This document shows positions 11,031 through 45,987 of a stretch of DNA of 64,000 nt, piece after piece; the first letter of the stretch is position 1, and the number at the start of each line of letters is the position of its first letter. A program made the position numbers and the translations under genes. The stretch comes from Candidatus Eiseniibacteriota bacterium. GTDB lineage: Bacteria > Eisenbacteria > RBG-16-71-46 > DASYSL01. The DNA lies in the NCBI GenBank assembly GCA_031431875.1, contig JANPEF010000008.1:2284-66283 (forward strand), written 5' to 3'. Under the pieces are notes generated by a model. The model did no database searches. It had not been told where the DNA came from and was given only the letters and a program-made list of their open reading frames with translations.

Positions 11031-11043
11031 CCGGGACCTCGCC

Positions 11044-13274: not shown

Positions 13275-13278
13275 GCCG

Positions 13279-17392: not shown

Positions 17393-17393
17393 C

Positions 17394-18113: not shown

Positions 18114-18475
18114 CCCGCCCGCAGTTGCTGGCCGCCTTGCTCACGGTCGGTCTTGCCGTGGGCGTGGTCGAGCTGGTGCGCCGCCGCCGGCTGTCCGAGG
18201 AGTACTCGCTGCTGGCGCTCGTCGCCATGGCCGGCGTGCTCGTCGTCGCGTTCTGGACGAGCGGCGTGACGACCTTCACGCACTGGTTCGGCGCGCTCTA
18301 CGAGACGTCGGTCATCTTCTTCTTCGGGCTCGTGTTCGTGATGGTGGCGCTCGTCTACTATGCGGTGAAGCTGACCCGGCTGACGCAGGAGGTGCGGCGG
18401 CTGGCGCAGGAGAGCGCGCTGCTTCGGCTCAAGCTCGAGCGTGCCGAGCGGCGCGACGGGGAGGGCGGACGATGA
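18110..18475 (+). CDS. small DUF2304-like membrane protein (GT2 partner)
   Basis: 121 aa. GTG overlaps the GT2 stop. Three TM helices (…LLTVGLAVGVVELV…LLALVAMAGVLVVAFW…VIFFFGLVFVMVALVYY…) plus a C-terminal amphipathic/coiled tail. Confidence 0.6.
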   Translation: MTRPQLLAALLTVGLAVGVVELVRRRRLSEEYSLLALVAMAGVLVVAFWTSGVTTFTHWFGALYETSVIFFFGLVFVMVALVYYAVKLTRLTQEVRRLAQESALLRLKLERAERRDGEGGR

Positions 18476-19479
18476 ACGCCGGCAAGCTCAAGGTCCAGCT
18501 CGCCATCGGCCTGCTGCTGTCGGCGGCGCTGTTGTGGCTGTCGCTGCGCTCGCTCGACCTGCACGAGGTCCTCGCCGCGCTGGCCGGCGCGAACTGGCTG
18601 TGGTTCCTGCCGATCTGCCTGTTGACGCTGCTCTCGTTCTGGGTGCGCGCGGTCCGCTGGGGCTGGATCCTGCACGGGATCAAGCCGATCCCGGCGCCGC
18701 GCCTGTTCGCCGCGACGATGATCGGCTTTGCCGCCAATAACCTGCTGCCGGCACGCCTGGGCGAGCTGGTGCGCCCCTGGGCGCTGGGCACCAGCGAGCG
18801 CATCTCGCGCTCCTCGGCGTTCGCCACGATCATCGTCGAGCGCGTCGTCGACATGTTCTGCATCCTGCTGCTGTTCGCGGTCGCCCTGGCGCTGCACCCG
18901 TTCCCGAAAATGGTGCAGGACGCCGGTCTCGCCGCGCTGGCCGTCAACGTCTTGCTGCTGGCGCTCCTCATGTCGATCGAACGCAGCCCGGCGCAGGCCG
19001 AGCGCGCGGCGGCGTGGGTGGAGCGGCGCGCCCCTTCGCGGATTGCACCGGCGGCCGCCTCGCTGCTGCGCAACTTCTCGGGCGGCCTGGGCGTGTTCCG
19101 CAACGGGCCGGGCCTGCTGAGGGTCACCATCTACTCGGCGATCATGTACGCCGTGACCGCGCTCGGGATGCAGGGTTGCATGTGGGCGTTCGACATGGTG
19201 GTGCCGTGGTATGCCGGCATCGTCCTGCTGGTCATCACTGCGTTCGGCATGATGATCGCGCCAACGCCGGGATACCTGGGCGCCATCCAGTACGCCTGCG
19301 TGCTGGGCCTGTCGCTGTTCGGCATCGACCGCGCGGTCGGCTTCTCGTTCTCGCTCTACTACCACCTGACGCAGTTCCTGCCCATCACGGTGGTGGGATT
19401 GATCTACCTGGGTCGCGCGGGGATGTCGCTCGGGCAGGTCGCGACCGCAAGCCGGGAGGGGGTGGGGGCCAGCGGCTGA
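18472..19479 (+). CDS. UPF0104 / LPG-synthase-TM-like 'flippase-like' membrane protein
   Basis: 335 aa polytopic protein. ATGA overlap with the previous gene. This family recurs next to DPM1-like GT2 genes. Confidence 0.65.
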   Translation: MNAGKLKVQLAIGLLLSAALLWLSLRSLDLHEVLAALAGANWLWFLPICLLTLLSFWVRAVRWGWILHGIKPIPAPRLFAATMIGFAANNLLPARLGELVRPWALGTSERISRSSAFATIIVERVVDMFCILLLFAVALALHPFPKMVQDAGLAALAVNVLLLALLMSIERSPAQAERAAAWVERRAPSRIAPAAASLLRNFSGGLGVFRNGPGLLRVTIYSAIMYAVTALGMQGCMWAFDMVVPWYAGIVLLVITAFGMMIAPTPGYLGAIQYACVLGLSLFGIDRAVGFSFSLYYHLTQFLPITVVGLIYLGRAGMSLGQVATASREGVGASG

Positions 19480-19596
19480 CGGCGAACGAGGCGGGTCGGA
19501 TCCGGGTTCACGCGCCTGAGTGTCGAGGGCCACTCGACGCGGGGACACCGTCGAAGGACGGAGTGAACCGGCCCGCCGAATAGAAGCTCGTGCGCG

Positions 19597-20814
19597 CTAC
19601 GGGCGACGCACGTGTGCCAGGACCTTTTTCACCGCGAACACCGCATCGTCGACGTCGACGTCGGTCATGCGCGGATAGATGGGCAGCGTGAAGATGCGCG
19701 GGTAGATGCGCTCGGCGACCGGAAAGTCGGCCGCGGCGAAGCCCAGCGTGTCGCGGTAGTAGGGGTGCTTGTGCACCGGGATGAAGTTGACCGTCGTGCC
19801 GATGTTCTCGGCCTTGAGCAGCTCGAGGAAGCGGGCCCGGTCGACGGTGAGGCGCTCGATGTCGAGCTCGATCGTGTACAGGTGCCGCGCGTGGTAGGCG
19901 TCGGGATGCACCCACGGGATCGTGACCTCGGGCACGTCGGCGAACGCCGCGTCGTAGCGCGCCGCGATCGCCTGGCGACGGGCGTCGAAGACCGGGTGGC
20001 GATCGAGCTGGGTCAGGCCCAGCGCGGCCGCGAGGTCGGTCAGGTTGTACTTGAATCCGGGTGCGGTCACCTCGTAGTACCACGAGCCCGCGCTCGAGTA
20101 GCGCTTCCAGGCGTCCTTCGAGATACCGTGCAGCGACAGCACCTGCGCCAGTGCCATGAAGTCGGCGTCGGCCGAGACGAGGCAGCCGCCCTCACCGGTG
20201 GTGATGTTCTTGATGGCGTAGAACGAGAAGCACGTCGCGTCGGCCAGCGTGCCGACGGGGCGGCCGTGCCAGCGGGCGCCGAACGAGTGGGCCGCGTCGG
20301 CGAGCAGGTGCAGCTTGTGGCGGAGGCACAGTTCGGCCAGCGCGTCGTAGTCGGCAGGCTGCCCGGCGAAGTCGACGGCGATGATCGCCTTCGTGCGCGG
20401 CGTGATCGCGGCGGCCACGCGCGCCGGATCGAGGTTCTTGGTGCGCGGGTCGACGTCGACCAGCACGACCTTCGCGCCGCAGTGGATGATGACGTTCGCG
20501 GTCGAGACGAAGGTCCAGGTCGAGGTGATCACCTCGTCGCCCGGGCCGATGCCCCAGGCGGCGAGCGCCAGGTGCAGCGCGCCGGTGCACGAGTTGACGG
20601 CGAGCCCCTGCGGCGCGCCGGACAGCTCGGCGATGCGGCGGCCGAGTTCGATCGCCTTCGGTCCGGTCGTCACCCAGCCGGATTCGAGCGTCTCGAGCAC
20701 GGCGGCCTTCTCAGCCTCGCCGACGGACGGCAGCGCGACGGGCAGGAAGGTTTCACGGACGGGGGCGCCGCCCTCGGCGGCGAGCGGGGCGGACAGGTCG
20801 CGGGGGTCGCTCAT
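19597..20814 (-). CDS. DegT/DnrJ/EryC1/StrS-family PLP-dependent sugar aminotransferase
   Basis: 405 aa from ATG 20814 (MSDPRDLSAP…). Contains …LESGWVTTGPKAIELGRRIAEL… and …CFSFYAIKNITTGEGG… (PLP-lysine motif). The rest of the 794-aa track ORF is the upstream gene plus a read-through. Confidence 0.9.
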   Translation of the reverse strand: MSDPRDLSAPLAAEGGAPVRETFLPVALPSVGEAEKAAVLETLESGWVTTGPKAIELGRRIAELSGAPQGLAVNSCTGALHLALAAWGIGPGDEVITSTWTFVSTANVIIHCGAKVVLVDVDPRTKNLDPARVAAAITPRTKAIIAVDFAGQPADYDALAELCLRHKLHLLADAAHSFGARWHGRPVGTLADATCFSFYAIKNITTGEGGCLVSADADFMALAQVLSLHGISKDAWKRYSSAGSWYYEVTAPGFKYNLTDLAAALGLTQLDRHPVFDARRQAIAARYDAAFADVPEVTIPWVHPDAYHARHLYTIELDIERLTVDRARFLELLKAENIGTTVNFIPVHKHPYYRDTLGFAAADFPVAERIYPRIFTLPIYPRMTDVDVDDAVFAVKKVLAHVRRP

Positions 20815-21812
20815 GCGCGCAGCGTCTCCGCAAGGGTGAGGACGTTCGAGTAACGGGCGGCGCGGAAGTCGGCTTCGGGTCGGTCGCGGAGCCAGGCGGC
20901 GATCTCGTCGACGCCGGACTCGACGGTGCGGCTCGCGTGGAAGCCGAGTTCGCGCTCGATGCGGGCGAACGACACGCGGTACGAACGCGGGTCGCGCGTT
21001 TCCTGGACGGTGAGACGGGTGCCCGGGAAGCGCGCGGCGATGCGCTCGCCGAGGTCGGCGATGCGGAGGTTCAAGGCATCCGAGCCGACGTTGAACGTCT
21101 CGCCGGCCGCGGCCGGGTGATCGAGACCGAGGACGACGGCGCGGGCCACGTCGTCGACGTGCACCTGCGGGCGCCACTGGTCGCCGCCGTGCACCTCGAC
21201 GATGCCGTCGCGCAGGGCGCGCGCGGTGAGCAGGTTGACGACCAGGTCGAAGCGCATGCGAGGTGCTGTGCCGAACACGGTCGCGAAGCGGAGCACGCAG
21301 GGCGCCTCGGCGCTCGACGGGTGCGCGGCGATCAGGGCCTCGGCCTCGAGATGTGTCTCGGCGTACAGCGACAGCGGTGCCGTCGGCGAGAGTTCGTCGA
21401 GCCAGGTGTCGCCGGCGGCGCCGTAGACCGAGCAGGTCGAGGCGAAGACGAGCCGGCGCAGGCCGGCCGCGGTGGCGGCGGCGAGGACGTGACGCGTGCC
21501 CTCGACGTTGACCGCGCGCGTGAGCACGGGGTCGAGCGCGCAGGCCGGGTCGCCGACCAGGCGCGCCAGGTGGACGACGCCGTCGCAGCCCTCGGCCGCA
21601 CGACGGACGGCGTCGGCGTCGCGCACGTCGCCGCGCACGAGGGTGAAGCCGGGGTGGTCGCGCAGCGCGGCGACCGAGTCGTCGGCGAAGAGGAACGAGT
21701 CGAACCCGCGGACGGCGTGACCGTCGGCGAGCAGCAGGGCCGCGACCCTCGTCCCGACGTAGCCGGCGACGCCGGTGACGAGCACGGGACGAGCGGAGAG
21801 GGGAGCGGGCAA
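20811..21812 (-). CDS. NAD-dependent epimerase/dehydratase (extended SDR)
   Basis: …PVLVTGVAGYVGTRVAALLL… (Rossmann GxxGxxG) and …YAETH… (YxxxK-type). Start chosen as TTG 21812 with AGGA 5 nt upstream; an alternative GTG lies at 21779. Stop overlaps the DegT start (ATGA). Confidence 0.75.
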   Translation of the reverse strand: MPAPLSARPVLVTGVAGYVGTRVAALLLADGHAVRGFDSFLFADDSVAALRDHPGFTLVRGDVRDADAVRRAAEGCDGVVHLARLVGDPACALDPVLTRAVNVEGTRHVLAAATAAGLRRLVFASTCSVYGAAGDTWLDELSPTAPLSLYAETHLEAEALIAAHPSSAEAPCVLRFATVFGTAPRMRFDLVVNLLTARALRDGIVEVHGGDQWRPQVHVDDVARAVVLGLDHPAAAGETFNVGSDALNLRIADLGERIAARFPGTRLTVQETRDPRSYRVSFARIERELGFHASRTVESGVDEIAAWLRDRPEADFRAARYSNVLTLAETLRA

Positions 21813-22024
21813 GGACGTCCTCGCAGGTGGAGGGGCGCGATCGGTGGTCGGTCGCGCCGACACGAAAACGCTGCGCCGAAGGGCGCAGCGACAGAATGAT
21901 GGTAATCGGCGGGATGCTTGCGCGACAAGGGCCATGGCACGGGCCCCGTCCCGCGCGGCGATCACGCGCCTGACCCCCCACGGGTCGCCGCCCCGGCGGC
22001 GCCCGCGAAGGCGCGAGGTGGACG

Positions 22025-23545
22025 GTGAGTCAGAAGAAGCAATTCGTGCGCGATACGGCGGGGTTCGCCCTCAGCCAGTACCTGTCGCGCTTCGTCCAGC
22101 TGTTCCGCGGCCTGATCGCGGCCCGCATCCTGGGGCCCGCGGCCTACGGCTCGTGGAACGCGCTGCTGCTGGTGCTCGACTACGGGATCCTGACGCAGCT
22201 CGGGCTGCAGCAGGGGCTCGATCAATGTGTGCCCGGCGCGCTGGCCAAGGAGACGCCCGCGCAATCGTCGCGGCTCAAGCAGGGCGGCATCGCCGGGATG
22301 ATCGTGCTGTGGATCCTCTTCGCGGTGGGGACCGCGATCTACCTCGTGGTGCGGCCGCGACGGCTGGCCGAGAGCTGGGGTGCCTGGGGCGTCATGCTCA
22401 TGGTGCTGGCGGTCCTCTTGCAGATGCTCATCTACTACCACGGAACGCTGCTGCGCTCGCACGGCCGGATCGGGGTGGTCAGCAAGACGATGACCATCCA
22501 GGCGATCATCGGCGGCCTGGCCGGGCTCGGCCTGCTGTTCCCGTTCGGGGTGTGGGGCCTGCTGTTCGGCTGGCTCCTTGGACAGGTCGTCGCGCTGATC
22601 TACATTCGCCGCCTCGGCGCGGAGTTCGCGCCGCTGGCGTTCGTGCCCAACGAGCGCACGCGCGAGTTGCTGGCCCACGGCTTCCCGATCTTCCTGTTCA
22701 TGGCGACGACTACGGTCCTCAAGTCGATCGATCGCGTGATGATCCTCAAGTTCCTCTCGGTCGAGGCGCTCGGCTACTACTCGATCGGCCTGATGGGCGT
22801 ATCGATGCTGCTCTACCTGCCCGAGTCGATCGCCTACGTGCTCTATCCCCGCCTGCTCGCCAAGTTTGCCGAGACCGGCGATCCCGACGTGACCGCGCGC
22901 GAGATGGTGCGCCCGCTCGCCGTCGTGGCGTGGGTCATGCCGCTCGTCGTCGGCATCTCCGTGTTCTGGGTGCGCGAACTCGTGCTCCTGTTCCTGCCCC
23001 AGTACCTGCCCGGCGTGCGTTCGCTCGCGCTTCTGCTGTTCGGCGCGCTGGGGCTGGCCCTCTCCAGCATTCCCGCGTTCTATCTCATGTCGATTCGCCG
23101 CCAGGGACAACTCATTCCGCTGGCCCTGCTGACGATCGCGGTCGAGGTCGGACTCATCCTCTTGTTCCTCCACTCCGGCGCGAAGATCGAGGGCGTGGCG
23201 CTGGCGGTGAGCCTCGGTTCCGCCATCTACGGGCTGGGGCTGCTCGGCTTCGCCGCGATGCACGCCGAGTCGACGACCCGGGCGCGCGTGGGCTTCGTGC
23301 TCAAGAGCGCGCTGCCGTCGATCCTCACCGTGCTGATCTGCGTCGGGCTCTACCTCGGCCTGCGACCACGGCTCGAGCCGTTCGCCTCGGAACTCGTGAT
23401 CTCGTTCCTGCTGAGCCTGCTGTTCGTGCTCTTCTACCTGCTGCTCGCGCGGCGGCTCAAGCCGCGCACGGGCGTGGTCGCCATGCTCCGGGAATCGAGC
23501 TGGCCGTTTGCGCGGATGCTGGCCGGGGTGTGGTCGCGTGATTAG
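22025..23545 (+). CDS. second Wzx-like polysaccharide flippase (MOP superfamily)
   Basis: 506 aa, ~12 TM helices, GTG start. Divergent from the DegT/SDR pair. Confidence 0.75.
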   Translation: MSQKKQFVRDTAGFALSQYLSRFVQLFRGLIAARILGPAAYGSWNALLLVLDYGILTQLGLQQGLDQCVPGALAKETPAQSSRLKQGGIAGMIVLWILFAVGTAIYLVVRPRRLAESWGAWGVMLMVLAVLLQMLIYYHGTLLRSHGRIGVVSKTMTIQAIIGGLAGLGLLFPFGVWGLLFGWLLGQVVALIYIRRLGAEFAPLAFVPNERTRELLAHGFPIFLFMATTTVLKSIDRVMILKFLSVEALGYYSIGLMGVSMLLYLPESIAYVLYPRLLAKFAETGDPDVTAREMVRPLAVVAWVMPLVVGISVFWVRELVLLFLPQYLPGVRSLALLLFGALGLALSSIPAFYLMSIRRQGQLIPLALLTIAVEVGLILLFLHSGAKIEGVALAVSLGSAIYGLGLLGFAAMHAESTTRARVGFVLKSALPSILTVLICVGLYLGLRPRLEPFASELVISFLLSLLFVLFYLLLARRLKPRTGVVAMLRESSWPFARMLAGVWSRD

Positions 23546-25730
23546 GCACCTGCTCACACCAGGCACGTGGTGGCTCGACGATCACCTGCCGCAGATCGAG
23601 CGGGCGACGATGTGGGGCAAGGTCGTGCTCTACGCGCTGCTCGGCAACCTTGCGGTGATGGGTTCGCCGGACGGGCTGTTGCTCTACGGTCCAGCCGAAC
23701 CCGGGGTCGGGCCGCTGGCGCGCACCATCCCGGCGCTCCTGGTGTGTGGTTTCGTCCCGGGCTGGGTGCTGGCGCGCGCGCTGCGGATCGACGGTTTCTG
23801 GATGTCGGTCGCCTGCGCCGTGTTGTTCTCGGCGTTCCTCGCCGCGGCGACCGCGGTGCCGGGCCTCGCCCAGGGCGGGAGTTTCGCCACGTCCGGGATC
23901 TTTCTCGGGCTCGCGCTGTGGACGCTCGCCATCGTCACCCTGGCGCGTGGCCTGCGGCGCATGCGCGGCGCGCCCCGAAGCGGTGTCGACGTGCCCACGT
24001 TCGTGCGGCCGTGGTCGGCGCTCGCGGTCGTCACGTTCGTGTCGCTGATCGCCGCGGTGCATGCGCAGAACCACGGCCTGGCGTGGCGCAGCGACGGCTG
24101 GTTCCACGGGGCAGTGACCGCGCGGCTGGCCGACGCGGGCCTGCCGCTGACAGATCCCTACTTCGCCGGGCAGGCGCTGCACTATCCGTACTTCTGGCAC
24201 GTGCTCGTGGGCACGACGGCTTCGGTGGGCGCGCGCCTCGGCGTCAGCGTTTTCGACGCGCTCGCCGGCTGGTCGGTGATGTCCGCGCTGGCGACCGCTG
24301 CCGCACTGGTGGCACTCGCGCACGCATGGGGCCGGCGCGCGGGGCTCGACGCCGCCGCGCGGGATCGAGCCGGCGCGTTCGCGGTGGCCGCGGCCATGCT
24401 CCTGGTCAATCCGTTCGGCTGGGTGCTGTGGCTCGGTCGCGGACTCCTCGGCGCCGATGGGGGCATGGCGGTGCTCACGCGTCCACTCATGCAGGGCGCG
24501 GCCGAGACGCTGGCGGCCATGTCGCTGATCACGCCGCACGTGAGCCTCGCCTCCACGCTCGACAAGTTTCTCACGCCGACGGCGTTCGGTCTCGCCCAGG
24601 CGGCGTTCCTGGTCGTCGCCGCATTCCTCGTCGGGCCGCGCCCGGCGCGGTACGTCGTGGGGGCCTTCGCCGTCGCGATCGGCTCGCTGGTGCACACGCT
24701 CCTGCCCCTGGTTTTCGCGATCGGGGTGGGCGCGGCCACACTGGCGCGGGCGACGGCCACCGACGGCGGCCGCGCGTTCGGGCGGGCCGCGGGACCGGTG
24801 TTCGCTGCGATGGCCTTCGGCATCGCCGTCCTCTGGCCGTACCTGCTGCAGGCGACCGCGCGGGGCACCGGGGGCCTGCGCTTTGGCGGTCATGCCGACA
24901 TGGCGCTCGCGGTCGTGCTGCTGGCGCCACTGGTGGCGCCGCTGGCGTGGACCGAGGCGCGACGGCGGACGTGGCGCCCCGGCTTCCGCGCATTCAAGGC
25001 GGGGTGGTTCGCGCTCGCGGCGATGCTGCTCTTCCTCGCGCTGGCGGTCACGCTCGTGCAGCGCAACGAGACGAAGTTCCTGAACCTGGCGCTCCTCGCC
25101 CTCGCCGTGCCTGCGGGCGTGGCGCTGGCGCGGTTGCGGGTCGCGCCCGCGGTCGGGCTCTGCCTGCTGGCTGCGCCGACGACGCTCGTCGCGCTCGCCG
25201 GGTTCGCGCTCGACCCGGGTCACGAGACCGTGGGCCGACGCGTGCCGCCGCCGGAGCTGGCTGCCGCCTATGACGCGGTGGCACGGCGCACGACGCGGCA
25301 CGATGTCCTGCTCGAAGCCCAGGCGGCGGACGCCCAGGACCCGGACCGGGATCTCCTGGTGCATGGTCCGCGCAGGCTCGTCTGGGGCGGCGAGGGCTAC
25401 GCGCACAACTGGGGCTACCCGGCGGCGGACCTCGCGCTGCGGCGCCGCGCCGCGCTCGAGCTGGCCGCCGGCGCGCTCGAAGAGTCGACCGTCGACGACC
25501 TGCGACGCCGGGCCGCGGCGGTCGGCGGGCATGTCTTCGCCGTGCGCCGGGATCCCACGGCGCCTGCACTGGGGGGGCCGTGGGCGCGCGTGTTTGCCAA
25601 CCACGCGCTCGCGCTCGAGGAACTCGACGCTCCGGAGATGACCCCGCGGGCCCGGTCCGTCGACTCCGTCGCCCCGGTCGAACCGCCGCGGGCCGTGCGC
25701 GTGGGCGTGCGCGAGCGGGAGCAAGGATGA
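23538..25730 (+). CDS. large polytopic membrane protein, paralog A (putative GT-C-like glycosyltransferase/polymerase)
   Basis: ~730 aa. GTG 23538 overlaps the flippase stop; alternative starts are TTG 23508 and ATG 23610. ~12-14 TM helices plus a C-terminal soluble domain. Loop motif SDGWFHGAVTARLADAGLPLTDPYFAGQALHYPYFWH is shared with the proteins at 25727 and 50655. Confidence 0.6.
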   Translation: MIRHLLTPGTWWLDDHLPQIERATMWGKVVLYALLGNLAVMGSPDGLLLYGPAEPGVGPLARTIPALLVCGFVPGWVLARALRIDGFWMSVACAVLFSAFLAAATAVPGLAQGGSFATSGIFLGLALWTLAIVTLARGLRRMRGAPRSGVDVPTFVRPWSALAVVTFVSLIAAVHAQNHGLAWRSDGWFHGAVTARLADAGLPLTDPYFAGQALHYPYFWHVLVGTTASVGARLGVSVFDALAGWSVMSALATAAALVALAHAWGRRAGLDAAARDRAGAFAVAAAMLLVNPFGWVLWLGRGLLGADGGMAVLTRPLMQGAAETLAAMSLITPHVSLASTLDKFLTPTAFGLAQAAFLVVAAFLVGPRPARYVVGAFAVAIGSLVHTLLPLVFAIGVGAATLARATATDGGRAFGRAAGPVFAAMAFGIAVLWPYLLQATARGTGGLRFGGHADMALAVVLLAPLVAPLAWTEARRRTWRPGFRAFKAGWFALAAMLLFLALAVTLVQRNETKFLNLALLALAVPAGVALARLRVAPAVGLCLLAAPTTLVALAGFALDPGHETVGRRVPPPELAAAYDAVARRTTRHDVLLEAQAADAQDPDRDLLVHGPRRLVWGGEGYAHNWGYPAADLALRRRAALELAAGALEESTVDDLRRRAAAVGGHVFAVRRDPTAPALGGPWARVFANHALALEELDAPEMTPRARSVDSVAPVEPPRAVRVGVREREQG

Positions 25731-28321
25731 ACCGCATCCTCGAGCGCTTCGAGTTTCCGCTGCCGCGCCTGGCGATGGGGGCCGCGCTGCTGGCGCTCTT
25801 CGGCGCGGTCGTCGCGGGGGCGCCGCTGCCCGGCTTCGTGCGGCTCACGGTGGCGGTGCTCACGCTGTCGTTCTGGCCCGGTGCGATGTTGTGGCGCTTC
25901 TTCCTGGTCGAGCACGAGGTCGAGTGGCCGGGACGCGTCGCGATCGCGTTTGCGCTGGGCCTGGGGATGGCGTGCGCGATCAACGTCGCCGCCGCCTGGT
26001 GGGGGTTCGATCCCGGCGTGGTCCTGTGGGTGCTGCCGGCGATCGGCGTCGCGCTGGCCTGCATGCGGCCCGCGCGTCCGGTCGAGGCGGCGGCACCGCG
26101 CGGCATGCTGCCGTGGTCGCTGCTCGCCGTCGTCGCCGTCGCCACGGCGCTTGTGGTGGGGACGCTCGGCGCGCCGCTGATGACCGACACGGACTCGCCG
26201 GATCACATCGCGACCGTGCGGCGCATTGCCGACACACGCGTCGTGCTTCCCGGCGACGCGTTCTTCGCCGATGCGGGCCTGTACGGCGCCGATCCGCGGA
26301 AGGGCGTGTATCACGCCTGGATCGCCTCGGTCGTGCGCGCCTCGCACGTCGACCCGGTCGACGCCTGGCGCTGGCTGCCAATCCTGTTCATTCCCACGTT
26401 CCTGCTCGCCGTCGCGGCGTTCACCTACAAGCTGACGGGCTCGCGCATGTCGGCGCTGCTCGCGGCCGTCCTGTTCCCGCTGATCTACGGCGGGGGGCTG
26501 GGCGGCACCGAGCTGCGCGAGACGGTCTATTCGACGCGCATCGGCGAGATGGTCGCGATCCTCGCGGCGGCCTGCCTGGTGCGCTTCATCGAGCGCGGCG
26601 GGCGGCGGCGGCTGGCGCTGTTCGTCGCGGTGGGCTGGACCGCGATCGCCGTGCACTTGTGGATCGTCCTCTACTTCGCGGTCGCCTTCGGCGTGTACGC
26701 GCTGGGGACGCTCGTCGTGCAGCGCTCGTGGCGGACGCTCGGGCGCTTCGCGGCGGCGGCTGCAGCGCTCGCGGTCCCCGCGCTGCCGTACCTCATGTGG
26801 CGCAAGGGCCAGGCCTACGGGCCGCAGAACGAGATCCACACCGAGCCGCAGGGCCTCTTCTACCTCGACGCGCACCGCTTCACGGTCGACCCGCAGGCGA
26901 TCTGGACCTGGTCGGGGGTGTGGCTGCTCGTGGCACTCGCCGCGGCGCCGTGGTTCTGGTCGCGTCGCCGCGAGTCGACCGGAGCGATCTACCTGGCGCT
27001 CGTGCCGTGGGCGGTCGTTCTCGTCGTGCTCAATCCGTTCGTGCTGCCGCTGGCGCACCGAACGCTCGGCTACCTGGTGATGCGGCTGATCTGGATCGTG
27101 CCTGTCATCCCCGCAGTCGCCACCGTGCTGACCGCCGTCGCCGAGGTCGCGCTGCGCGGCGCCGGGCGGGCGCGGGCGTGGGCGCTCGTGGGGTCCGCCG
27201 CGGCGCTGCTCGTGCTGGCGCCGGCGCTGGGCCAGGCCGTGTCGAACTTGACCGACCGGGGGCTGCTGCATTCGCTCGAGGCCGAGCGCGGGCCCGCGTC
27301 GTGGATGGACCTGCTCACGTGGCTGCGCGACGAGTACCCGCGACCGCGCGTGCTGCTGGCCGACCCGGCGACATCGTACTCGATCCCCGCCTACACCGGA
27401 CACCAGGTGACGGCGTACCTGGACCAGCACAGCTCGCCGAACGATCCGCGCGGGCTGACGCGCATCCTCGACGCGCGCGACGTGCTGTCGCCGTCGGTCG
27501 ACCTGCGCACGACGCTCACCCTGTTGCGCGCGTACGGCGCCGACGCGGTCGTGGTCAACCAGCGTTTCGTGCGGCCGATCGCGTTCGACTACTGGTCGGT
27601 CGAGCCCCGCCTGTATGCGGCGACGCGCGCCAAGTTCGAGGAACACCCGGAGTGGTTCCGGCCCGTGTTCGCCGAGCGAGGCGCCTGGGTGTTCGAGCTC
27701 ACCGATTCCGCGCGTCACGGCGCGCTGCCGGCTCCGGCCGAGATGCCGCGGCCCGTGCTGACGGCGACCGAGCGCGAGAGCACGCTGGCGACCGTGACCC
27801 CGCTCGCCGACGGCCTGTTCCTGCAGTACGGCACCACGAGCGATCGCCCGGTGTACGCGCCGGGGGACACCATCCAGTTGGTCACCCACTGGGCCCTGAC
27901 CCCGGGCCAGGTGGCCCGGCCGGGCAGCTACACGGTGTACGTGCGCCTCGACGGCGCTGAGCCGCGCGGGCCGCTCTACTCGGACCGGTGGCAGAAGCCG
28001 TATCGCAAGGCGCTCGAGCGCACGAGCGGGCAGAAGTGGCGCGCCCGCGAGTCGCACCGGCCGCTCAACGGCGTGTTCGCGCCCGACCGCTGGCGCACGG
28101 GGGAGATCGTGGCCGATTCGTCCACGTTCGGCGTGCCGCGCGAGCTGGCCCCCGGCGAGTACGAGGTGCGCGTGCGCATGGTGCGCATGCCGCACTACCC
28201 GAACACTCGCCTGCGCGACTACCTCAGCGACGACGACCTGTTCAACGGACCGGTGGTCGGTCGCGTGCGGATCGAGTCGCCGACGGACTCGGACCCGGGA
28301 TCGAGGGAGACTGCGCCATGA
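25727..28321 (+). CDS. large polytopic membrane protein, paralog B (putative GT-C-like), with ~300-aa C-terminal extracytoplasmic domain
   Basis: 864 aa from ATG 25727 (ATGA overlap); MNRILERFEFPLPRLAMGAALLALFG…. Asp-rich first loop …MTDTDSPDHIATVRRIADTRVVLPGDAFFADAGLYGADPRKGVYHAW…. The ORF-track start 25580 is an extension. Confidence 0.6.
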   Translation: MNRILERFEFPLPRLAMGAALLALFGAVVAGAPLPGFVRLTVAVLTLSFWPGAMLWRFFLVEHEVEWPGRVAIAFALGLGMACAINVAAAWWGFDPGVVLWVLPAIGVALACMRPARPVEAAAPRGMLPWSLLAVVAVATALVVGTLGAPLMTDTDSPDHIATVRRIADTRVVLPGDAFFADAGLYGADPRKGVYHAWIASVVRASHVDPVDAWRWLPILFIPTFLLAVAAFTYKLTGSRMSALLAAVLFPLIYGGGLGGTELRETVYSTRIGEMVAILAAACLVRFIERGGRRRLALFVAVGWTAIAVHLWIVLYFAVAFGVYALGTLVVQRSWRTLGRFAAAAAALAVPALPYLMWRKGQAYGPQNEIHTEPQGLFYLDAHRFTVDPQAIWTWSGVWLLVALAAAPWFWSRRRESTGAIYLALVPWAVVLVVLNPFVLPLAHRTLGYLVMRLIWIVPVIPAVATVLTAVAEVALRGAGRARAWALVGSAAALLVLAPALGQAVSNLTDRGLLHSLEAERGPASWMDLLTWLRDEYPRPRVLLADPATSYSIPAYTGHQVTAYLDQHSSPNDPRGLTRILDARDVLSPSVDLRTTLTLLRAYGADAVVVNQRFVRPIAFDYWSVEPRLYAATRAKFEEHPEWFRPVFAERGAWVFELTDSARHGALPAPAEMPRPVLTATERESTLATVTPLADGLFLQYGTTSDRPVYAPGDTIQLVTHWALTPGQVARPGSYTVYVRLDGAEPRGPLYSDRWQKPYRKALERTSGQKWRARESHRPLNGVFAPDRWRTGEIVADSSTFGVPRELAPGEYEVRVRMVRMPHYPNTRLRDYLSDDDLFNGPVVGRVRIESPTDSDPGSRETAP

Positions 28322-29448
28322 CGGCTTCCACGCCAGAGCCGCGGCGAATCCTGCTCATTATCCACGCCATGTCCGCCGGGGGCGCGGAGCGCGTCTGCAG
28401 CGTGCTCGCCAATGCGTGGGCGGCGCGCGGGGACGTGGTCACCATCGCCACCCTGTCCGCGCCGGGTGAGCCGTCGTTCTTCCCGCTCGACGCCGCCGTG
28501 ACGCAGGTCTCGCTCGGCGCGGATGGCGACCCGGGTCCGGCGTTGCGGGCCCTCGGCGCCGTGGGGCGCAATGTCGCCCGCATCCGGGCGATCCGACGCG
28601 CCATGCGCGACGCCCGGCCGGACATCGCCCTCTCGTTCATGGATGTGACGAACGTCCTGACCATCATCGCGTCCCAGGGGACCGGGATTCCAGTGATCGC
28701 CACGGAGCACATCGATCCGTCCCAGCACGACATTGGGGCGTTGTGGACAACCCTGCGGCGTCGTGCCTATTCGCACGTCGCGCGCCTCGCCGTCCTGAGT
28801 GATCGAGCACTCGACTACTTCCCCGCGGACATTCGCCGTCGCTCCATCGTCATGCCGAACCCGATCGGGCTCCCGCCCGCCCGGCAACAGGCGTCGTGCA
28901 GCGGGCGGGGGAACGCACGAACGGTGGTCGCGATGGGCCGCATGACGTCGCAGAAGGGCTTCGACCTCCTGCTCGATGCGTTCGCCCTGGTCGCCGGCGC
29001 CCACCCCGAGTGGTCGCTCGAGATCTGGGGGGAGGGGCCGCTTCGCGCGGAGCTCGAGCTACGGGCCCAGGCGCCGGACCTTGCGGGGAGAGTTCGATTT
29101 CCGGGGACGACGAACGATGCCTACGGCGTCCTCCGCGCGGCGGACCTGTACGTCCTCTCGTCCCGCTACGAAGGATTCCCCATGGTTCTCTGCGAGGCGA
29201 TGGCCAGCGGGCTTCCCGTGATCAGCTTCGACTGCCGGACGGGACCACGGGAGATCATCCGCGATGGCGTCGATGGAGTGCTCGTGCCACCCGAGGACGT
29301 GGGCGGACTGGCTGCGCAACTGAATCGACTCATGGCCGACGCGAGGTCGCGTGACGATCTGGCGCGGCGCGCTCCAGAGATCTGCGATCGGTTCGGAGTG
29401 ACCCGCGTGCTCGCCCGGTGGGACGACCTCTTCCAGGAGATTCTCTGA
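28318..29448 (+). CDS. GT4 glycosyltransferase
   Basis: 376 aa from ATG 28318 (ATGA overlap); MTASTPEPRRILLIIHAMSAGGAERV…. GT-B C-terminal motif …EGFPMVLCEAMASGLPVISFD…. Confidence 0.85.
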   Translation: MTASTPEPRRILLIIHAMSAGGAERVCSVLANAWAARGDVVTIATLSAPGEPSFFPLDAAVTQVSLGADGDPGPALRALGAVGRNVARIRAIRRAMRDARPDIALSFMDVTNVLTIIASQGTGIPVIATEHIDPSQHDIGALWTTLRRRAYSHVARLAVLSDRALDYFPADIRRRSIVMPNPIGLPPARQQASCSGRGNARTVVAMGRMTSQKGFDLLLDAFALVAGAHPEWSLEIWGEGPLRAELELRAQAPDLAGRVRFPGTTNDAYGVLRAADLYVLSSRYEGFPMVLCEAMASGLPVISFDCRTGPREIIRDGVDGVLVPPEDVGGLAAQLNRLMADARSRDDLARRAPEICDRFGVTRVLARWDDLFQEIL

Positions 29449-29449
29449 C

Positions 29450-31417
29450 ATGTGTGGTATCGCGGGGATCTACCACTATGCGAACGGGCGCTCGGTCGAT
29501 CACGACCTGCTGCTCGCCATGCGGGACCGCCTCACCCATCGCGGGCCGGATGACGCGGGGCTTCGCATCGAGGGGCCGATTGGGCTCGCCCAGCGCCGGC
29601 TGTCCATCGTCGACCTGTCGGAGGCGGGGCGGAACCCGCTGGCGAACGAGGACGACACGCGCTGGATCACGTTCAATGGAGAGGTCTACAACGTGCTCGC
29701 GCGGCGCTCCGAGCTCGAGGCCAGGGGCCACCGCTTCCGCAGTCGCACCGACACCGAGATGGTCCTCCACCTGTACGAGGAATACGGCGACGAGGTGGTT
29801 CATGAGCTGAGCGGAATGTTCGCATTCGCGTTGTGGGACGGACCGCGGAAGCGCCTGCTCGTGGTGCGCGATCGCATGGGCAAGAAGCCGTTGTATTGGC
29901 GCGCCGACGGCGGATCGTTCGCGTTCGCCTCGGAGATGAAGGCGCTGCTGGCGGATCCGACCCTGTCCCGCACGGTCGATCCGCGCGCGTTGCAGGCGTA
30001 CCTCACGCTTCAGTACGTGCCGTCGCCCGACTCGATCCTGCAGGGAGTGCGGAAGCTGCCGCCGGGGCACCTGCTGATCGTCACGCCCGATGGCGTGGAG
30101 GAACGGCGCTGGTGGACTCCGCCCACCGACGAGAAGATCGAGCGCACCGACGCCTCGGCAGCGGGGGAGTTGCGTGGCCTGCTCGAGACCGCAGTCGAAC
30201 GCCGCTTCATGAGCGATGTACCGCTGGGCGCATTCCTCTCCGGCGGGATCGATTCATCCATCGTGTGTGCCCTGATGGCACGTCGGATGGATCGCCCGGT
30301 GAAGACCTTCACGATCGGCTTCGAAGGGGCGCCCGAGGACGAGCGCGCGCATGCGCGCATCGTGGCGCGTCATCTCGGCGCCGAGCACCACGAGTTTGTC
30401 GTGCGGCCCGACGCCCTGTCCATCCTGCCGTGGCTGGTGTGGCACATGGACGAACCGCTGGCCGACTCGTCGACGCTGCCCACCTGGGCGGTGAGCGAGA
30501 TGGCGCGCCAGCACGTCACCGTTGTTCTCTCCGGCGACGGGGGCGACGAGACCTTTGCCGGCTACGAGACGTACCGCTCGGCCGCGGCCTACACGCGGGC
30601 CGATCGCATTCCGGCGCCGCTGCGGAAACTTGCCTCCGGCGCCGCCGCGGCACTGGGGTCGGCGGTCAATCCGGCCTGGGCGCGTCGCTTCGTCCGGCTG
30701 GCCCAGGATCCACTCGAACGCTATCTCAGCTTCGTGGCGATCGCAGGCCCTGCCGAGGTGGCGGGCGTGCTGGCGCCCGACGTGCGCGCCTCGCTCGCCG
30801 CCGCCGATCCGTTCGCGCGCCTGCGGCCGCATGTCGCGGGCCTTGATCCGCGTGATCCGCAGACCCTGCTTCATCTCGACCTGACCACGTACATGACGGA
30901 CGACGTGCTCGCCAAGGTCGATCGGATGAGCATGGCGCATGCGCTCGAAGTGCGCGTTCCCCTGCTCGACACGGACGTCGTGGAGTTCGCTTCACGCCTG
31001 CCCTACGGCCAGAAGTTCCGGGACGGCACGTCGAAGTGGCTGCTCAAGCGCGTGGCCGCCGACCTGCTGCCGCCGTCGATCCTGGCGCGCGGCAAGCAGG
31101 GCTTCGCTGTGCCGCTCGAGCGCTGGTTCGGGGGCCGCTTCGACAGCTTTGTGGACGCGACCCTTTCGCGGGACGCGATCGTCCGCCGCGGCCTGTTCGA
31201 CCCGGACGGCGTCGCGCGCCTGACGCAGCGTGCCCTCGGTCGCGCCCCGGGAGGACGACCAGGTCGGCCAGATCACGTCGCCGGCAGGCTTCTGTGGGCC
31301 CTGATCGTCTTCGAGCTCTGGGCGGGCAGGTTTCTTGACCACGCGGGCGTGGCGCCGCCCGGGACCCGGCCGCGCCTCACCGGGGCCGAGGTCACGACCC
31401 CGGCAGGTGTCGTATGA
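29450..31417 (+). CDS. asnB: asparagine synthetase (glutamine-hydrolysing)-family amidotransferase
   Basis: 655 aa. MCGIAGI N-terminal Cys2 nucleophile (class II GATase). …SGGIDSS… PP-loop. Starts 1 nt after the GT4 stop. Confidence 0.9.
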   Translation: MCGIAGIYHYANGRSVDHDLLLAMRDRLTHRGPDDAGLRIEGPIGLAQRRLSIVDLSEAGRNPLANEDDTRWITFNGEVYNVLARRSELEARGHRFRSRTDTEMVLHLYEEYGDEVVHELSGMFAFALWDGPRKRLLVVRDRMGKKPLYWRADGGSFAFASEMKALLADPTLSRTVDPRALQAYLTLQYVPSPDSILQGVRKLPPGHLLIVTPDGVEERRWWTPPTDEKIERTDASAAGELRGLLETAVERRFMSDVPLGAFLSGGIDSSIVCALMARRMDRPVKTFTIGFEGAPEDERAHARIVARHLGAEHHEFVVRPDALSILPWLVWHMDEPLADSSTLPTWAVSEMARQHVTVVLSGDGGDETFAGYETYRSAAAYTRADRIPAPLRKLASGAAAALGSAVNPAWARRFVRLAQDPLERYLSFVAIAGPAEVAGVLAPDVRASLAAADPFARLRPHVAGLDPRDPQTLLHLDLTTYMTDDVLAKVDRMSMAHALEVRVPLLDTDVVEFASRLPYGQKFRDGTSKWLLKRVAADLLPPSILARGKQGFAVPLERWFGGRFDSFVDATLSRDAIVRRGLFDPDGVARLTQRALGRAPGGRPGRPDHVAGRLLWALIVFELWAGRFLDHAGVAPPGTRPRLTGAEVTTPAGVV

Positions 31418-31456
31418 GCCGCAAGCGGCACTCCTATCTGCAAGTGGGAACGGCAC

Positions 31457-31485
31457 TTGCGTGCACAGTCTGTCTCCGCTAGAAT
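31457..31485 (+). promoter_or_regulatory. sigma70-like internal promoter candidate
   Basis: TTGCGT (31457-31462), 17-nt spacer, TAGAAT (31480-31485). Lies in the 125-nt gap between asnB and the double-GT4 gene. Confidence 0.3.
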
Positions 31486-31541
31486 GGACGGGCTATGACC
31501 GACCCCCGCTTCGTGGCCCTCCCGTCCCGGGTGTGGTCCGC

Positions 31542-33812
31542 ATGAACATCACCATCCTGATCGGGCGGTTCCCGCCGCACGACGTCGGGGGCGCCGAGCG
31601 TCAGGCCGACCGCCTGGCCGCCGCGCTCGCAGCGCGAGGTCACGGCGTGACGGTGCTCACCCGGCGCTGGTCGGGTCGGCCGGCGCACGGGGAGCGCGAC
31701 GGGTTCACCATCGTGCGCACGCCCGTCGTCCTGGCCGGGCCGGCGCGCAGCGGGCTCGACGCGGCGACGACGCTCGGGGCGCTGCGTGCGCTGTCGCCCC
31801 GCCCCGACGTGGTGCTCGCGTTCCAGACCTACGTCAGCGGCACGATCGCCGGCCTGGCGGATGTGGCGCTGGGAATCCCTTCGGTCGTCTGGGTGCGCGG
31901 CGAGAACGAGTACCGCTTCGACCGGCTGCCGCACCTCTATGCTCCGTCGAAGTTCGCCTGGAGCCAGGCGCGGCGCGTCCTCGTCCAGAGCCGGGCGCAC
32001 CGCGAGGGCATGCTCGCGCAGATCGCGCTGCGCAACCCGCTGCTCTCCGAGCGCATCGCGACGCGCGTCGACGTGCTGGGCAACGGCGTCGAGCTCCCCG
32101 CCGAGGCGGTGACTGGCGGCACCGACTGGCTGTACGTGGGTCGCCTGATCGAGCACAAGGGCGTGGATGTCCTGCTGCATGCGCTCGCCCGGGCGCACGG
32201 CACGGCGGCGGATCGACCCTTGTGGGTCGTCGGCGACGGTCCCGCCCGCGCGGAACTCGAGGCGCAGGCGAAGCAGATGGGGCTCGACGTGCGCTTCGTC
32301 GGCTTCGCCGCGCGGTCGGAACTTCCAGGCTACTGGGAGAAGGCGGCGGCGATCGTCCTGCCCTCGACCCAGGGCGAGGGACTTCCCAACGCATTGCTCG
32401 AGGCGATGGCGGCCGGCGTGCCACCGGTGGCCACGGCCCTGCCGGGCGTCGAGGAACTGGTCCGGGGCGTGGGCCGCATCGTTCCCGTCGGGGACGCCGC
32501 GAGCCTTGCCGGGGCGCTGGCCGAGCTGACCGAGCCCAGCGAGCGGCGGCGACTCGCCTTCGGTGCGCGCGCGCGCGCGGCCACGATGTCGTTCGAGGCG
32601 ATCGCGGCACAGCTCGAGGGCGTGTTGACGGAAGCGATCCGACCGGCGCCGCGCGTCTGGCTGGTCTCGCCGGATCCGGGCTCGCGCGGCGGCGTGGCAG
32701 CCGTGGCGCGGCAGATGGTCGTCTCGCCGCTGTCGCGCCACGTCCGGCTCTCGATGTTCCCGACGTACCGCGCCGGCTCGGTCCTCGGGCGCCTGTACCG
32801 CGGGGGCCTCGGCATCGGTGCGATCGCCGTTGGACTGGCGCTGCGCAAGCCCGATCTCATCCACATCAAGGTCGCCTCGCGCGGCTCGTTCGCTCGCAAG
32901 CTCGTGGTGTCCTCGCTGGCCCGGCTGCGCGGCGTACCGGTCCTGGTCCACGTGCACGGCGGCGGCTTCGACCAGTTCGTCGCCCGGTCGCCGGCGATGG
33001 TTCGCGCGCTCGCGCGGTGGTTGCTCGAGTCGACGCCGCAGGTGCTCTCCCTCTCCGAGCGCTGGGCGGAAAAACTGCGGCCGCTGTTCCCGAACGCACA
33101 CATCGCCGTGCTGGCGAACCCGGTCGAGGTGTCGCGGTTTGCCGCCGTCGCGCAGCAGCGCTTCGATGCGCTCGACCGGGGCGAGGCGCTGCCGCCGCCC
33201 TTGACCGCGCTCTTTCTCGGCGAGGTGCTCGAGCGCAAGGGGATCTACGACCTGATCGCGGCCTGGCGAGACGTCGTGCGCGACGTGCCCGGTGCGCGGC
33301 TGATCCTTGCCGGAACCGGTGAACTCGAGCGCGCGCGCGCCGCGGCCGAGGCTGCGGGCGTCTCGCCCCTGGTCGACCTTCCCGGATGGATCGGCTTCTC
33401 CGACAAGCTCCGGGCCATGGCGCAGGCCAGCCTGTTCGTGCTGCCGTCCTACACCGAGGGCGTGCCGATCAGCCTGCTCGAGGCGATGGCGGCGGGGCTC
33501 CCCTCGGTGGTCACGCCCGTCGGCGGCGTGCTCGATGCCGTGACCGACGGGCAGGAGGCGTTGATCGTGGCCCCGGGCGATCGCGACGCCCTGGCGCGCG
33601 CCATCGTCCAGGTCCTGCGCACACCCGAGCTGGGGCGCGCGCTCGGCGCGACGGCGCGCCGGCGCACGGCGGACTTCGATGTGGTCGTGTACGCGGAGCG
33701 CCTGGAGAGGATCTATCACTCGATCCTCGCGGCGCGATCCAGGACGTCGCAGGACGGGACCGGGGTCGCGACGGCTGCCGCCGGCGGCATGCCCGCAAAG
33801 GCCGCGCGATGA
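31542..33812 (+). CDS. tandem double-domain GT4 glycosyltransferase (two fused GT-B units)
   Basis: 756 aa from ATG 31542 (MNITILIGRFPPHDVGGAER…). Two successive GT4 C-terminal motifs (…EGLPNALLEAMAAGVPPVATA… and …EGVPISLLEAMAAGLPSVVTP…). The ORF-track start 31335 is an extension. Confidence 0.8.
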   Translation: MNITILIGRFPPHDVGGAERQADRLAAALAARGHGVTVLTRRWSGRPAHGERDGFTIVRTPVVLAGPARSGLDAATTLGALRALSPRPDVVLAFQTYVSGTIAGLADVALGIPSVVWVRGENEYRFDRLPHLYAPSKFAWSQARRVLVQSRAHREGMLAQIALRNPLLSERIATRVDVLGNGVELPAEAVTGGTDWLYVGRLIEHKGVDVLLHALARAHGTAADRPLWVVGDGPARAELEAQAKQMGLDVRFVGFAARSELPGYWEKAAAIVLPSTQGEGLPNALLEAMAAGVPPVATALPGVEELVRGVGRIVPVGDAASLAGALAELTEPSERRRLAFGARARAATMSFEAIAAQLEGVLTEAIRPAPRVWLVSPDPGSRGGVAAVARQMVVSPLSRHVRLSMFPTYRAGSVLGRLYRGGLGIGAIAVGLALRKPDLIHIKVASRGSFARKLVVSSLARLRGVPVLVHVHGGGFDQFVARSPAMVRALARWLLESTPQVLSLSERWAEKLRPLFPNAHIAVLANPVEVSRFAAVAQQRFDALDRGEALPPPLTALFLGEVLERKGIYDLIAAWRDVVRDVPGARLILAGTGELERARAAAEAAGVSPLVDLPGWIGFSDKLRAMAQASLFVLPSYTEGVPISLLEAMAAGLPSVVTPVGGVLDAVTDGQEALIVAPGDRDALARAIVQVLRTPELGRALGATARRRTADFDVVVYAERLERIYHSILAARSRTSQDGTGVATAAAGGMPAKAAR

Positions 33813-37494: not shown

Positions 37495-37503
37495 TCCGCC
37501 GAC

Positions 37504-42675: not shown

Positions 42676-42694
42676 GCCTGTCTCCTCCTGCCCG

Positions 42695-45090: not shown

Positions 45091-45094
45091 GCGA

Positions 45095-45985: not shown

Positions 45986-45987
45986 GC

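Follow-up and report, generated by a model that had tools for sequence, protein, structure and literature searches.

Three large membrane proteins, here called A, B and C, encoded in a 64,000-nucleotide stretch of the genome of an uncultured member of the Eisenbacteria (the window), are predicted to adopt a GT-C glycosyltransferase fold closest to that of the oligosaccharyltransferases (OSTs). Their relationships are best explained by membership of an uncharacterised DUF6541-like superfamily, and they make up a so far unstudied branch of a familiar class of enzymes; the kind of system is not a new one. GT-C enzymes make and decorate most cell-surface glycans. We consider it probable that A, B and C are periplasm-facing transferases which use polyprenyl-phosphate-sugar donors to decorate an exopolysaccharide polymer.

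Two paralogs and a distant relative

GC3-based gene calling reproduced the three open reading frames of the earlier note (Table 1), and the three peptide motifs quoted there occur verbatim in the proteins. The ATG of B overlaps the stop of A. An alternative start may apply to A, the ATG at MWGKVV, as in its relative P0001.

The three had been described as paralogs. Judged by their sequences, this is clear for A and C (29% identity over 575 residues, BLASTP E=2e-13) but B, which gave no BLASTP match to either, is an ancient relative that has diverged strongly and carries a beta-sandwich as an additional domain. The A/C-family and B-family profiles align by hhalign with a probability of 98.4% (E=7.9e-15, 588 columns) and with the loop motif in register, RSDGWFH pairing with TDSPDH and DPYFAG with DAFFAD. 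The control, a polytopic GT-C of the PMT_2 type from the same window, reached probabilities of only 2.5% and 0.4% against the A/C and B profiles, so that the likeness between A/C and B is more than hydrophobic composition.

Table 1. Features of the A, B and C genes, their products and their neighbourhood in the window
Feature	Nucleotides	Strand	Residues	Remarks
GT2a + DUF2304 small membrane protein + LPG_synthase_TM flippase-like	17394..19479	+		
GT2a	17394..18113	+		PpgS/AglJ/ArnC-like polyprenyl-phosphate sugar synthase
DegT aminotransferase (PseC/ArnB-like) + SDR dehydratase/epimerase	19597..21785	-		
Wzx2, Wzx-type flippase (Polysacc_synt)	22025..23545	+		stop overlaps start of A
A	23538..25730	+	730 aa	
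A membrane core			1-~558	
A loop motif DGWFHGAVTARLADAGLPLTDPYF	24093..24164	+		after fifth TM helix, predicted periplasmic loop
A soluble C-terminal domain			~559-700	
B	25727..28321	+	864 aa	
B membrane core			1-~535	~15 TM helices
B loop motif DSPDHIATVRRIADTRVVLPGDAFF	26192..26266	+		D156, D159, H160, P175 invariant in 26 relatives
B OST-type alpha/beta core domain	27344..27721	+	~540-665	predicted periplasmic
B C-terminal beta-sandwich	27794..28276	+	~690-850	highly conserved
PMT_2 protein (control)	43657..45090			polytopic GT-C
Module downstream of C	45095..50619	-		same operon as C
SDR of C module	45095..45991	-		
GMC oxidoreductase	45988..47595	-		
Hexapeptide acyltransferase	48026..48547	-		
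DUF2304 of C module	48544..48960	-		
Polysaccharide deacetylase with DUF3473	48974..49843	-		
GT2c	49840..50619	-		PpgS-like
C	50655..52733	-	692 aa	
C loop motif DSWVHAGIVWDVLDLGFPPQDPRF	52215..52286	-		D150, H154
Wzy_C protein	53740..55323			

A conserved loop, predicted to be periplasmic

Topology prediction and the positive-inside rule place the N-terminus in the cytoplasm and the motif loop outside, after TM5. Five residues of A (D186, H190, Y216, H386 and R612) are invariant among 47 diverse A/C relatives. Their aligned counterparts D156, H160 and H310 in B are invariant in 26 B relatives; D177 is near-invariant (23/26), and the motif is followed by the invariant D189-P-R191-K192 and H196. 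D186 of A, D156 of B and D150 of C align with one another and each is invariant within its own family. All three proteins therefore share with GT-C enzymes a conserved acidic residue starting the first long extracytoplasmic loop. A catalytic role for this Asp is putative, and the positions proposed for the active site derive from sequence and topology only. When all six reading frames of the window were translated, the core pattern D-x3-H-x8-20-P-x1-2-D-x2-F, which had been derived post hoc from A, B and C, gave exactly three occurrences, all of them in these proteins, where shuffles predict 0.14.

Domain organization and predicted fold

In line with the earlier description of a membrane core followed by a soluble part, the cores measure ~510-560 residues, and the C-terminal part is longest in B (~330 aa, against ~170 aa in A and ~165 aa in C). 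The odd number of TM helices in B leads to the prediction that its C-terminal domains are periplasmic. Its alpha/beta domain carries the conserved motifs DPATSYSIP and DQHSSPND, which would occupy the position of the OST WWDYG motif, judging from the order of secondary structure elements and not from residue-level superposition; the beta-sandwich is possibly carbohydrate-binding. The polytopic core is predicted to have the GT-C helix arrangement. Fold searches with both predicted models (for A the confidence is moderate only, pLDDT 69) returned GT-C enzymes alone as top matches. Since the next unrelated folds score far lower, these results support the resemblance to GT-C enzymes suspected earlier and reject a transporter; nor did searches of Pfam, NCBIfam and PDB give a confident assignment to any transporter family.

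Family relationships

No Pfam or NCBIfam model matched A, B or C at E<1, and sequence and profile searches against PDB chains gave nothing meaningful. It is their relatives which match uncharacterised polytopic membrane families (DUF6541, DUF2298 and DUF6798). Two distant relatives of B, P0041 and P0051, match DUF6541 (PF20176) end to end with 50.1 and 36.8 bits, above the gathering threshold of 29 bits; B itself does not match the model and is thus a peripheral relative, not a member. Among the 47 A/C relatives, DUF2298 (PF10060) is matched by 5 (best E 1.6e-6), DUF6541 by 3 and DUF6798 (PF20604) by 3, in each case weakly. The description of the family as unnamed consequently holds for A, B and C, but the wider B family has the placeholder name DUF6541. 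On DUF6541, DUF2298 and the polysaccharide of Eisenbacteria, literature searches turned up no functional information.

A full HMMER scan revealed the size of the family, ~1000 sequence clusters; a word-indexed search with A had found 8 matches only and a broad alignment added little. Membership of PMT_2/ArnT (GT83, GT39) was rejected, there being no model match and no profile likeness to a PMT_2 protein. An apparent B-AsnB fusion, P0052, proved to be a frameshift artefact in which 180 low-complexity, out-of-frame residues in the middle replace the beta-sandwich.

Genomic context

The locus is an exopolysaccharide cluster of the Wzx/Wzy type with XrtA/PEP-CTERM-like character, its best family matches being the XrtA/PEP-CTERM EPS families. 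The order Wzx1-GT2-DUF2304-flippase-like-DegT-Wzx2-A-B-AsnB-GT4 is kept in ~20 loci from Eisenbacteria, Binatia and Acidiferrales, a sample biased towards Eisenbacteria by the alignment with which it was gathered. The translationally coupled A-B tandem persists across the phylum even though A and B retain only 30-40% identity. In related loci Wzx2 lies directly upstream of A-B, or of B alone (loci L003 and L004), and the trio GT2a/DUF2304/LPG_synthase_TM is conserved upstream of Wzx2-A-B.

C belongs to a separate module that encodes a GT2, a deacetylase and a DUF2304 protein of its own. The set C-GT2-deacetylase-DUF2304-GMC-SDR also surrounds a C-like gene in L034/L035, and C-like genes adjoin the deacetylase in L002 and L026. 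The supposed triplication within one locus is better described as an ancient coupled A-B tandem plus a separate C module.

Candidate genes for a lipid-linked sugar pathway adjoin each of the three, in the form of a PpgS/ArnC-like GT2, a DUF2304 membrane protein and flippase-like genes. The top NCBIfam matches of GT2a, GT2c and GT2d, all below curated cutoffs, are the polyprenyl-phosphate sugar synthases PpgS, AglJ, Dol-P-hexose transferase and ArnC. Candidate flippases are the two DUF2304 proteins, Wzx1 (a MatE/MurJ-like match) and the LPG_synthase_TM protein (101.5 bits to the flippase-like TIGR00374, cutoff 43.2). The DegT and SDR enzymes are a likely source of an amino-sugar nucleotide.

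A proposed function and its alternatives

The adjacent GT2, DUF2304 and flippase-like genes suggest that A, B and C may use polyprenyl-(di)phosphate-linked donors. In the pathway that we propose, the PpgS/ArnC-like GT2s and their DUF2304 partners would load a sugar, probably an amino or N-acetylamino sugar made by the DegT/SDR enzymes, onto polyprenyl phosphate at the cytoplasmic face. In the C module the lipid-linked sugar may then undergo deacetylation and perhaps also epimerisation, the latter through the GMC oxidoreductase and SDR. The donor would cross the membrane by way of a flippase-like protein (LPG_synthase_TM, DUF2304 or Wzx1), and the GT-C enzyme would pass the sugar to the growing or finished exopolysaccharide made by the Wzx/Wzy machinery. 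The architecture of the enzymes can be read accordingly: four extra N-terminal TM helices precede a fifth helix and the predicted periplasmic D-x3-H ... P-x-D-x2-F loop, and ~10 more TM helices lead to an AglB/STT3-type C-terminal domain, predicted to be periplasmic. The catalytic base would be the loop Asp, conserved His, Lys and Arg residues may hold the lipid phosphate, and the acceptor glycan would be held by the C-terminal domain(s). The three proteins may add different sugars or linkages; distinct specificities, as suggested earlier, are plausible.

Several observations sit less well with this proposal. The best structural neighbours, C-terminal domain included, are OSTs, which use diphosphate-linked oligosaccharides, and translational coupling ties A and B to a Wzx flippase, a type of protein that normally handles Und-PP-linked repeat units. 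The subthreshold scores of the GT2s count on the same side, as do relatives found outside such modules: an orphan in L011 adjoins a TPR protein and an Isosphaeraceae gene lies in an ABC-transporter glycan locus. The GT-C candidates of the window (A, B, C and three PMT_2 proteins) moreover outnumber its four PpgS/ArnC-like GT2s, so that a one-to-one pairing of GT-C and GT2 is not established.

In an alternative that we regard as possible, if doubtful, A and B (and C) move a whole Wzx-flipped, Und-PP-linked oligosaccharide to an acceptor in OST-like fashion. They would then serve as a non-Wzy polymerase, as a ligase whose target is a lipid or cell-wall anchor, or as a protein glycosyltransferase for non-sequon acceptors, for example those of the PEP-CTERM type. 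The overlaps of the Wzx2 stop with the A start and of the A stop with the B start would suit such a role, as would the persistence of Wzx2 beside B where A is missing, the XrtA/PEP-CTERM character of the locus and the fact that several related loci have no visible Wzy_C gene. Against it, the window does encode a Wzy_C protein, no STT3 Pfam match was found, WWDYG is missing from all 83 family sequences examined, and there is no conserved DXD. The conserved genes for GT2, DUF2304 and flippase-like proteins call for a GT-C to work with, for which A/B and C are the conserved candidates, and monophosphate-donor GT-Cs score nearly as well as OSTs (AftA 14.8, ArnT 13.9, Pmt4 17.2).

A narrower version, which we think improbable, sees in A and B a coupled bacterial lineage of STT3/AglB-like OSTs, perhaps hetero-oligomeric, which has lost the sequon-reading WWDYG motif and transfers the Wzx-flipped, Und-PP-linked oligosaccharide en bloc to a non-sequon acceptor. 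The acceptor might be a further repeat unit, which would make the pair a polymerase independent of Wzy, or else PEP-CTERM-type surface proteins or a lipid or cell-wall anchor. If true, this would extend OST-like enzymes to a new class of reaction, kept across the candidate phylum Eisenbacteria.

Very unlikely is a non-enzymatic transporter, scaffold or sensor with a structural motif, or a pseudo-enzyme, for example A as inactive partner of B, an arrangement with parallels in some hetero-oligomeric GT-C complexes. The co-conservation of A and B as a coupled pair and the dispensability of A in some loci would fit, but the fold matches are enzymes only, no transporter family was matched in Pfam, NCBIfam or PDB, and the invariance of the putative catalytic Asp and His in all three lineages argues against loss of activity. 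Classical Wzy polymerases or WaaL ligases (Wzy_C/O-antigen polymerase) too divergent for Pfam, an idea invited by the large size and polytopic nature of the proteins, by the Wzx gene beside them in a locus of the Wzx/Wzy type and by the frequency with which Wzy proteins escape Pfam, have scarcely any likelihood left, given no Wzy_C model match and no WaaL-like fold where GT-Cs head the searches.

Comparison with known systems

For now, what A, B and C offer is no surprise but a well-founded gain in annotation, by which hypothetical proteins become GT-C glycosyltransferases. The family is distinctive in combining a D-x3-H loop signature with an OST-type C-terminal domain that lacks WWDYG; if characterised, it would probably add one or two GT families to CAZy. 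Experimentally founded GT-C families, such as ArnT, Emb/Aft and GT136, have each opened new biology. Characterisation of A, B and C would help to explain the Eisenbacteria envelope polysaccharide and would clarify how OST architecture relates to polysaccharide-modifying GT-Cs.

With STT3, AglB and PglB (GT66), these proteins share the predicted fold of the C-terminal central-core globular domain, but no sequence-level relationship (no Pfam STT3, NCBIfam or PDB match). Neither WWD nor W[WYF]D[YWF]G occurs in A, B, C or 83 aligned relatives. B has D154-T-D156, but D154 is variable (10/26), so that the first external loop has no conserved DXD; the pattern conserved in the loop of all three is instead D-x3-H, in B more exactly D-x2-D-H. 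Unlike the OSTs, the family has four additional TM helices at the N-terminus, and the locus of its genes is one for polysaccharide, equipped with polyprenyl-phosphate sugar synthases, and not one for protein N-glycosylation.

Systems of three components, the last of them a GT-C, are widespread (PMC11127046). In mycobacteria, PpgS (GT2), the small membrane protein Rv3632 and the GT-C Rv3779 add GalN to arabinogalactan (PMC3485146). GtrA/B/C, ArnC/D/E/F/T, PpgS-Rv3632-Rv3779 and Citrobacter GT136 all bring together a GT2 synthase, a GT-C and a small membrane protein or one that resembles a flippase, as here, and the Arn system has further parallels in our locus, which also encodes an ArnB-like DegT aminotransferase and an ArnD-like member of the polysaccharide-deacetylase family. 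The putative system described here differs in that its GT-C is not of the PMT_2/ArnT, GtrC, GT136 or Rv3779 type by sequence and carries an OST-type C-terminal domain.

Genes and relatedness of A, B and C

The G+C content of the window (about 70%) crowds raw ORF lists; a codon-position GC model gave a clean gene map. This placed at the same coordinates the three genes for large polytopic membrane proteins (A, B and C) singled out in an earlier note for a shared loop motif, and the peptides quoted there are found in the products. A and C match each other by BLASTP over nearly their whole length (E=2e-13, 29% identity over 575 residues). B matches neither by BLASTP. Relatives were gathered for profile building (8 for A and 46 for B). 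The family profile of A and C relatives (A/C profile) aligned with that of B relatives in hhalign with a probability of 98.4% (E=7.9e-15); the 588 aligned columns begin in the N-terminal helices and extend into the C-terminal soluble domain. Within this alignment the loop signatures fall at matching positions, RSDGWFH opposite TDSPDH and DPYFAG opposite DAFFAD. As a control, the PMT_2 GT-C of the window that is paired with a GT2 scored 2.5% and 0.4% against the same two profiles. The core pattern D-x3-H-x8-20-P-x1-2-D-x2-F, defined post hoc, has three occurrences in the six-frame translation (0.14 expected), all of them within A, B and C. The proposed relationship thus holds for all three proteins, although B has diverged strongly and is an old relative.

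Features of the window
Feature	Position	Strand	Length	Remarks
Polysaccharide locus	10224..64000		54 kb
ORF	11044..12414	+		No Pfam match; weak NCBIfam chain-length determinant match (EpsF/pepcterm_ChnLen)
ORF	13138..14571	+	~477 aa	No Pfam match; upstream of Phosphodiest gene
GT2a	17394..18113	+
Wzx2	22025..23545	+		Stop overlaps A start
A	23538..25730	+	730 aa	Codon-position GC gene calling
B	25727..28321	+	864 aa	Codon-position GC gene calling
Unusual fusion	31533..33812	+	759 aa	Two complete GT4 units
Unusual fusion	35278..37494	+	738 aa	Zinc-type alcohol dehydrogenase domain and GFO/IDH/MocA oxidoreductase
PMT_2-type GT-C candidate	40532..41992	+		Weak match, E 0.0024, below cutoff
ArnC/PgfS-like GT2	42695..43660
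PMT_2-type GT-C candidate	43657..45090	-		Paired with the ArnC/PgfS-like GT2
GMC-family FAD oxidoreductase and short SDR	45095..47595	-		Directly downstream of GT2-deacetylase-DUF2304
GT2c	49840..50619	-
C	50655..52733	-	692 aa	Codon-position GC gene calling
PMT_2-type GT-C candidate	57850..59373	+
Heparinase II/III-like protein	60392..62398	+		N- and C-terminal domains; adjoins Ugd

Family extent and conserved residues

No Pfam or NCBIfam model matched A, B or C at E<1, and no PDB chain matched them by sequence or profile. When 1.84 billion cluster representatives were scanned in full with HMMER, the A/C profile recovered 1030 proteins at E<=1e-3, and 241 at the stricter E<=1e-30; most have 650-700 aa and align over their entire length. 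This is thus a real, moderately large and unannotated family. Where the sources name the relatives, they appear as 'hypothetical protein'. Residues G75, D186, H190, Y216, H386 and R612 (A numbering) are invariant in 47 diverse A/C members. Among those invariant in 26 B relatives are D156, D159, H160, D189, R191, K192, H196, H310, R340, H371 and R453, together with a DQHSSPND block. Above-threshold matches to Pfam DUF6541, covering the full length, come from distant relatives of B; among the A/C relatives, a few give weak matches to DUF2298, DUF6541 or DUF6798. A literature search found no mention of DUF6541.

Related genes also occur in other settings. An Eisenbacteria contig of 1 Mb (CAWBWI010000006.1) carries an orphan A-like paralog of 683 aa (9593..11644) outside any glycan locus; the gene directly before it encodes a TPR protein of 340 aa, and molybdopterin and housekeeping genes lie around it. 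In three Isosphaeraceae MAG loci, a distant relative of 646 aa (P0210; 10001..11941) is part of a glycan locus of the ABC-transporter (Wzm/Wzt-like) type, together with heptosyltransferase, sulfotransferase, DegT, NeuB and CMP-sugar synthetase genes, a pathway context that differs from that of the Eisenbacteria loci. The family is therefore not confined to the EPS module. An apparent fusion of a B-like protein with an AsnB-like amidotransferase (P0052, NCBI, 1502 aa) was rejected: a low-complexity, out-of-frame-looking middle replaces the beta-sandwich, and the sequence most likely reflects a frameshift or assembly artefact.

Predicted fold and topology

AlphaFold2 models were built with the family alignments, with high confidence for B (pLDDT 90.1, pTM 0.91) and moderate confidence for A (pLDDT 69, pTM 0.75). 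All 22 Foldseek matches of the B model at E<=1e-3 are GT-C proteins. From predicted helices and the positive-inside rule, the N-terminus is cytoplasmic; four TM helices are followed by a fifth and then by the motif loop of about 70 residues on the periplasmic side, where the C-terminal domains are also predicted to lie. In the modelled architecture, four additional helices precede the GT-C core at the N-terminus and a core domain of the OST type follows it at the C-terminus; B adds a conserved beta-sandwich. None of the 83 sequences examined contains the WWDYG hallmark of N-OST, and the DXD-like D154-T-D156 of B is not conserved. The tests run place the proteins in the GT-C fold class and outside GT66, PMT_2/ArnT and Wzy_C. 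Together with the lack of any Pfam or NCBIfam assignment, the Foldseek result supports the original suggestion of an unnamed, GT-C-like family.

The polysaccharide locus and its conserved gene order

The window begins with the housekeeping genes rbfA, truB, ribF, rpsO and pnp, followed by a single, very large polysaccharide locus. For export and chain length it encodes a Wza-like exporter, a chain-length determinant and a tyrosine kinase. Four small GT2s, several GT4s, three PMT_2 GT-Cs and a Bac_transf initiating transferase are encoded as well, along with two Wzx flippases and a Wzy_C protein; further products are two AsnB-like amidotransferases, a CapK/PaaK-like ligase, a heparinase II/III-like protein and Ugd. 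With A, B and C included, the putative GT-C enzymes number six, and four GT2s resemble polyprenyl-phosphate sugar synthases. GT2a, GT2c and GT2d have polyprenyl-phosphate sugar synthases as best matches (PpgS, AglJ, Dol-P-hexose transferase, ArnC). LPG_synthase_TM passes a 'flippase-like' model, and DegT is PseC/ArnB-like. Many genes (export, chain-length, amidotransferase, deacetylase, FemAB-like) have XrtA/PEP-CTERM exopolysaccharide families as best NCBIfam match, all slightly below curated cutoffs, and there is no exosortase gene within the window. The heparinase II/III-like protein may act on the polymer, as a lyase or as an epimerase-like enzyme.

Among related loci the best match is JANOEH010000166.1 (Candidatus Eisenbacteria, 95% identity). 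Window proteins were mapped by tblastn onto 30 loci. Some 20 of them conserve the order Phosphodiest-Wzx1-GT2a-DUF2304-LPG_synthase_TM-DegT(-)-[SDR]-Wzx2-A-B-AsnB-GT4, including loci whose A and B share just 30-40% identity with the window proteins. In two loci (L003 and L004) Wzx2 is followed by B without A. A second module, on the minus strand and headed by C, reads C-GT2c-deacetylase(DUF3473)-DUF2304-hexapeptide acyltransferase-GMC oxidoreductase-SDR. Two ENA contigs (L034 and L035) carry the same gene set around a C-like gene, including the oxidoreductase and SDR in the same position, and in two further loci (L002 and L026) the deacetylase adjoins C-like genes. Both unusual fusions are conserved in related loci, and L004 has a 445-aa Pfam-less gene in the position equivalent to the ORF upstream of Phosphodiest.

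Proposed function

On balance we favour a reading in which A, B and C supply the GT-C part of periplasmic glycosylation modules with three components. In these, a PpgS/ArnC-like GT2 and its DUF2304 partner would charge polyprenyl phosphate with what is probably an amino sugar. This lipid-linked sugar may, in the C module, be de-N-acetylated and, by analogy, possibly epimerised by the oxidoreductase of the GMC family together with the SDR; the deacetylase would resemble ArnD, and the latter pair may follow the DprE1/DprE2 logic of lipid-linked sugar epimerisation. The donor would then be flipped and the GT-C would move the sugar onto the exopolysaccharide. By analogy, the loop Asp may act as base, with His, Lys or Arg as phosphate ligands.

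The main rival, en bloc transfer from an Und-PP-linked oligosaccharide, is suggested by the fold and C-terminal domain, both OST-like, and by the coupling of translation with Wzx2; we regard it as rather unlikely.

The gain in annotation for A, B and C is solid, and two features, the conserved A-B pair and an OST-like domain that lacks WWDYG, provide a testable and potentially more interesting hypothesis. The three proteins represent an uncharacterised GT-C branch whose architecture and signature are unusual; they do not make up a new kind of system. The mycobacterial PpgS-Rv3632-Rv3779 set (PMC3485146) is a precedent for the three-component periplasmic module, as are the Gtr, Arn and GT136 systems (PMC11127046).
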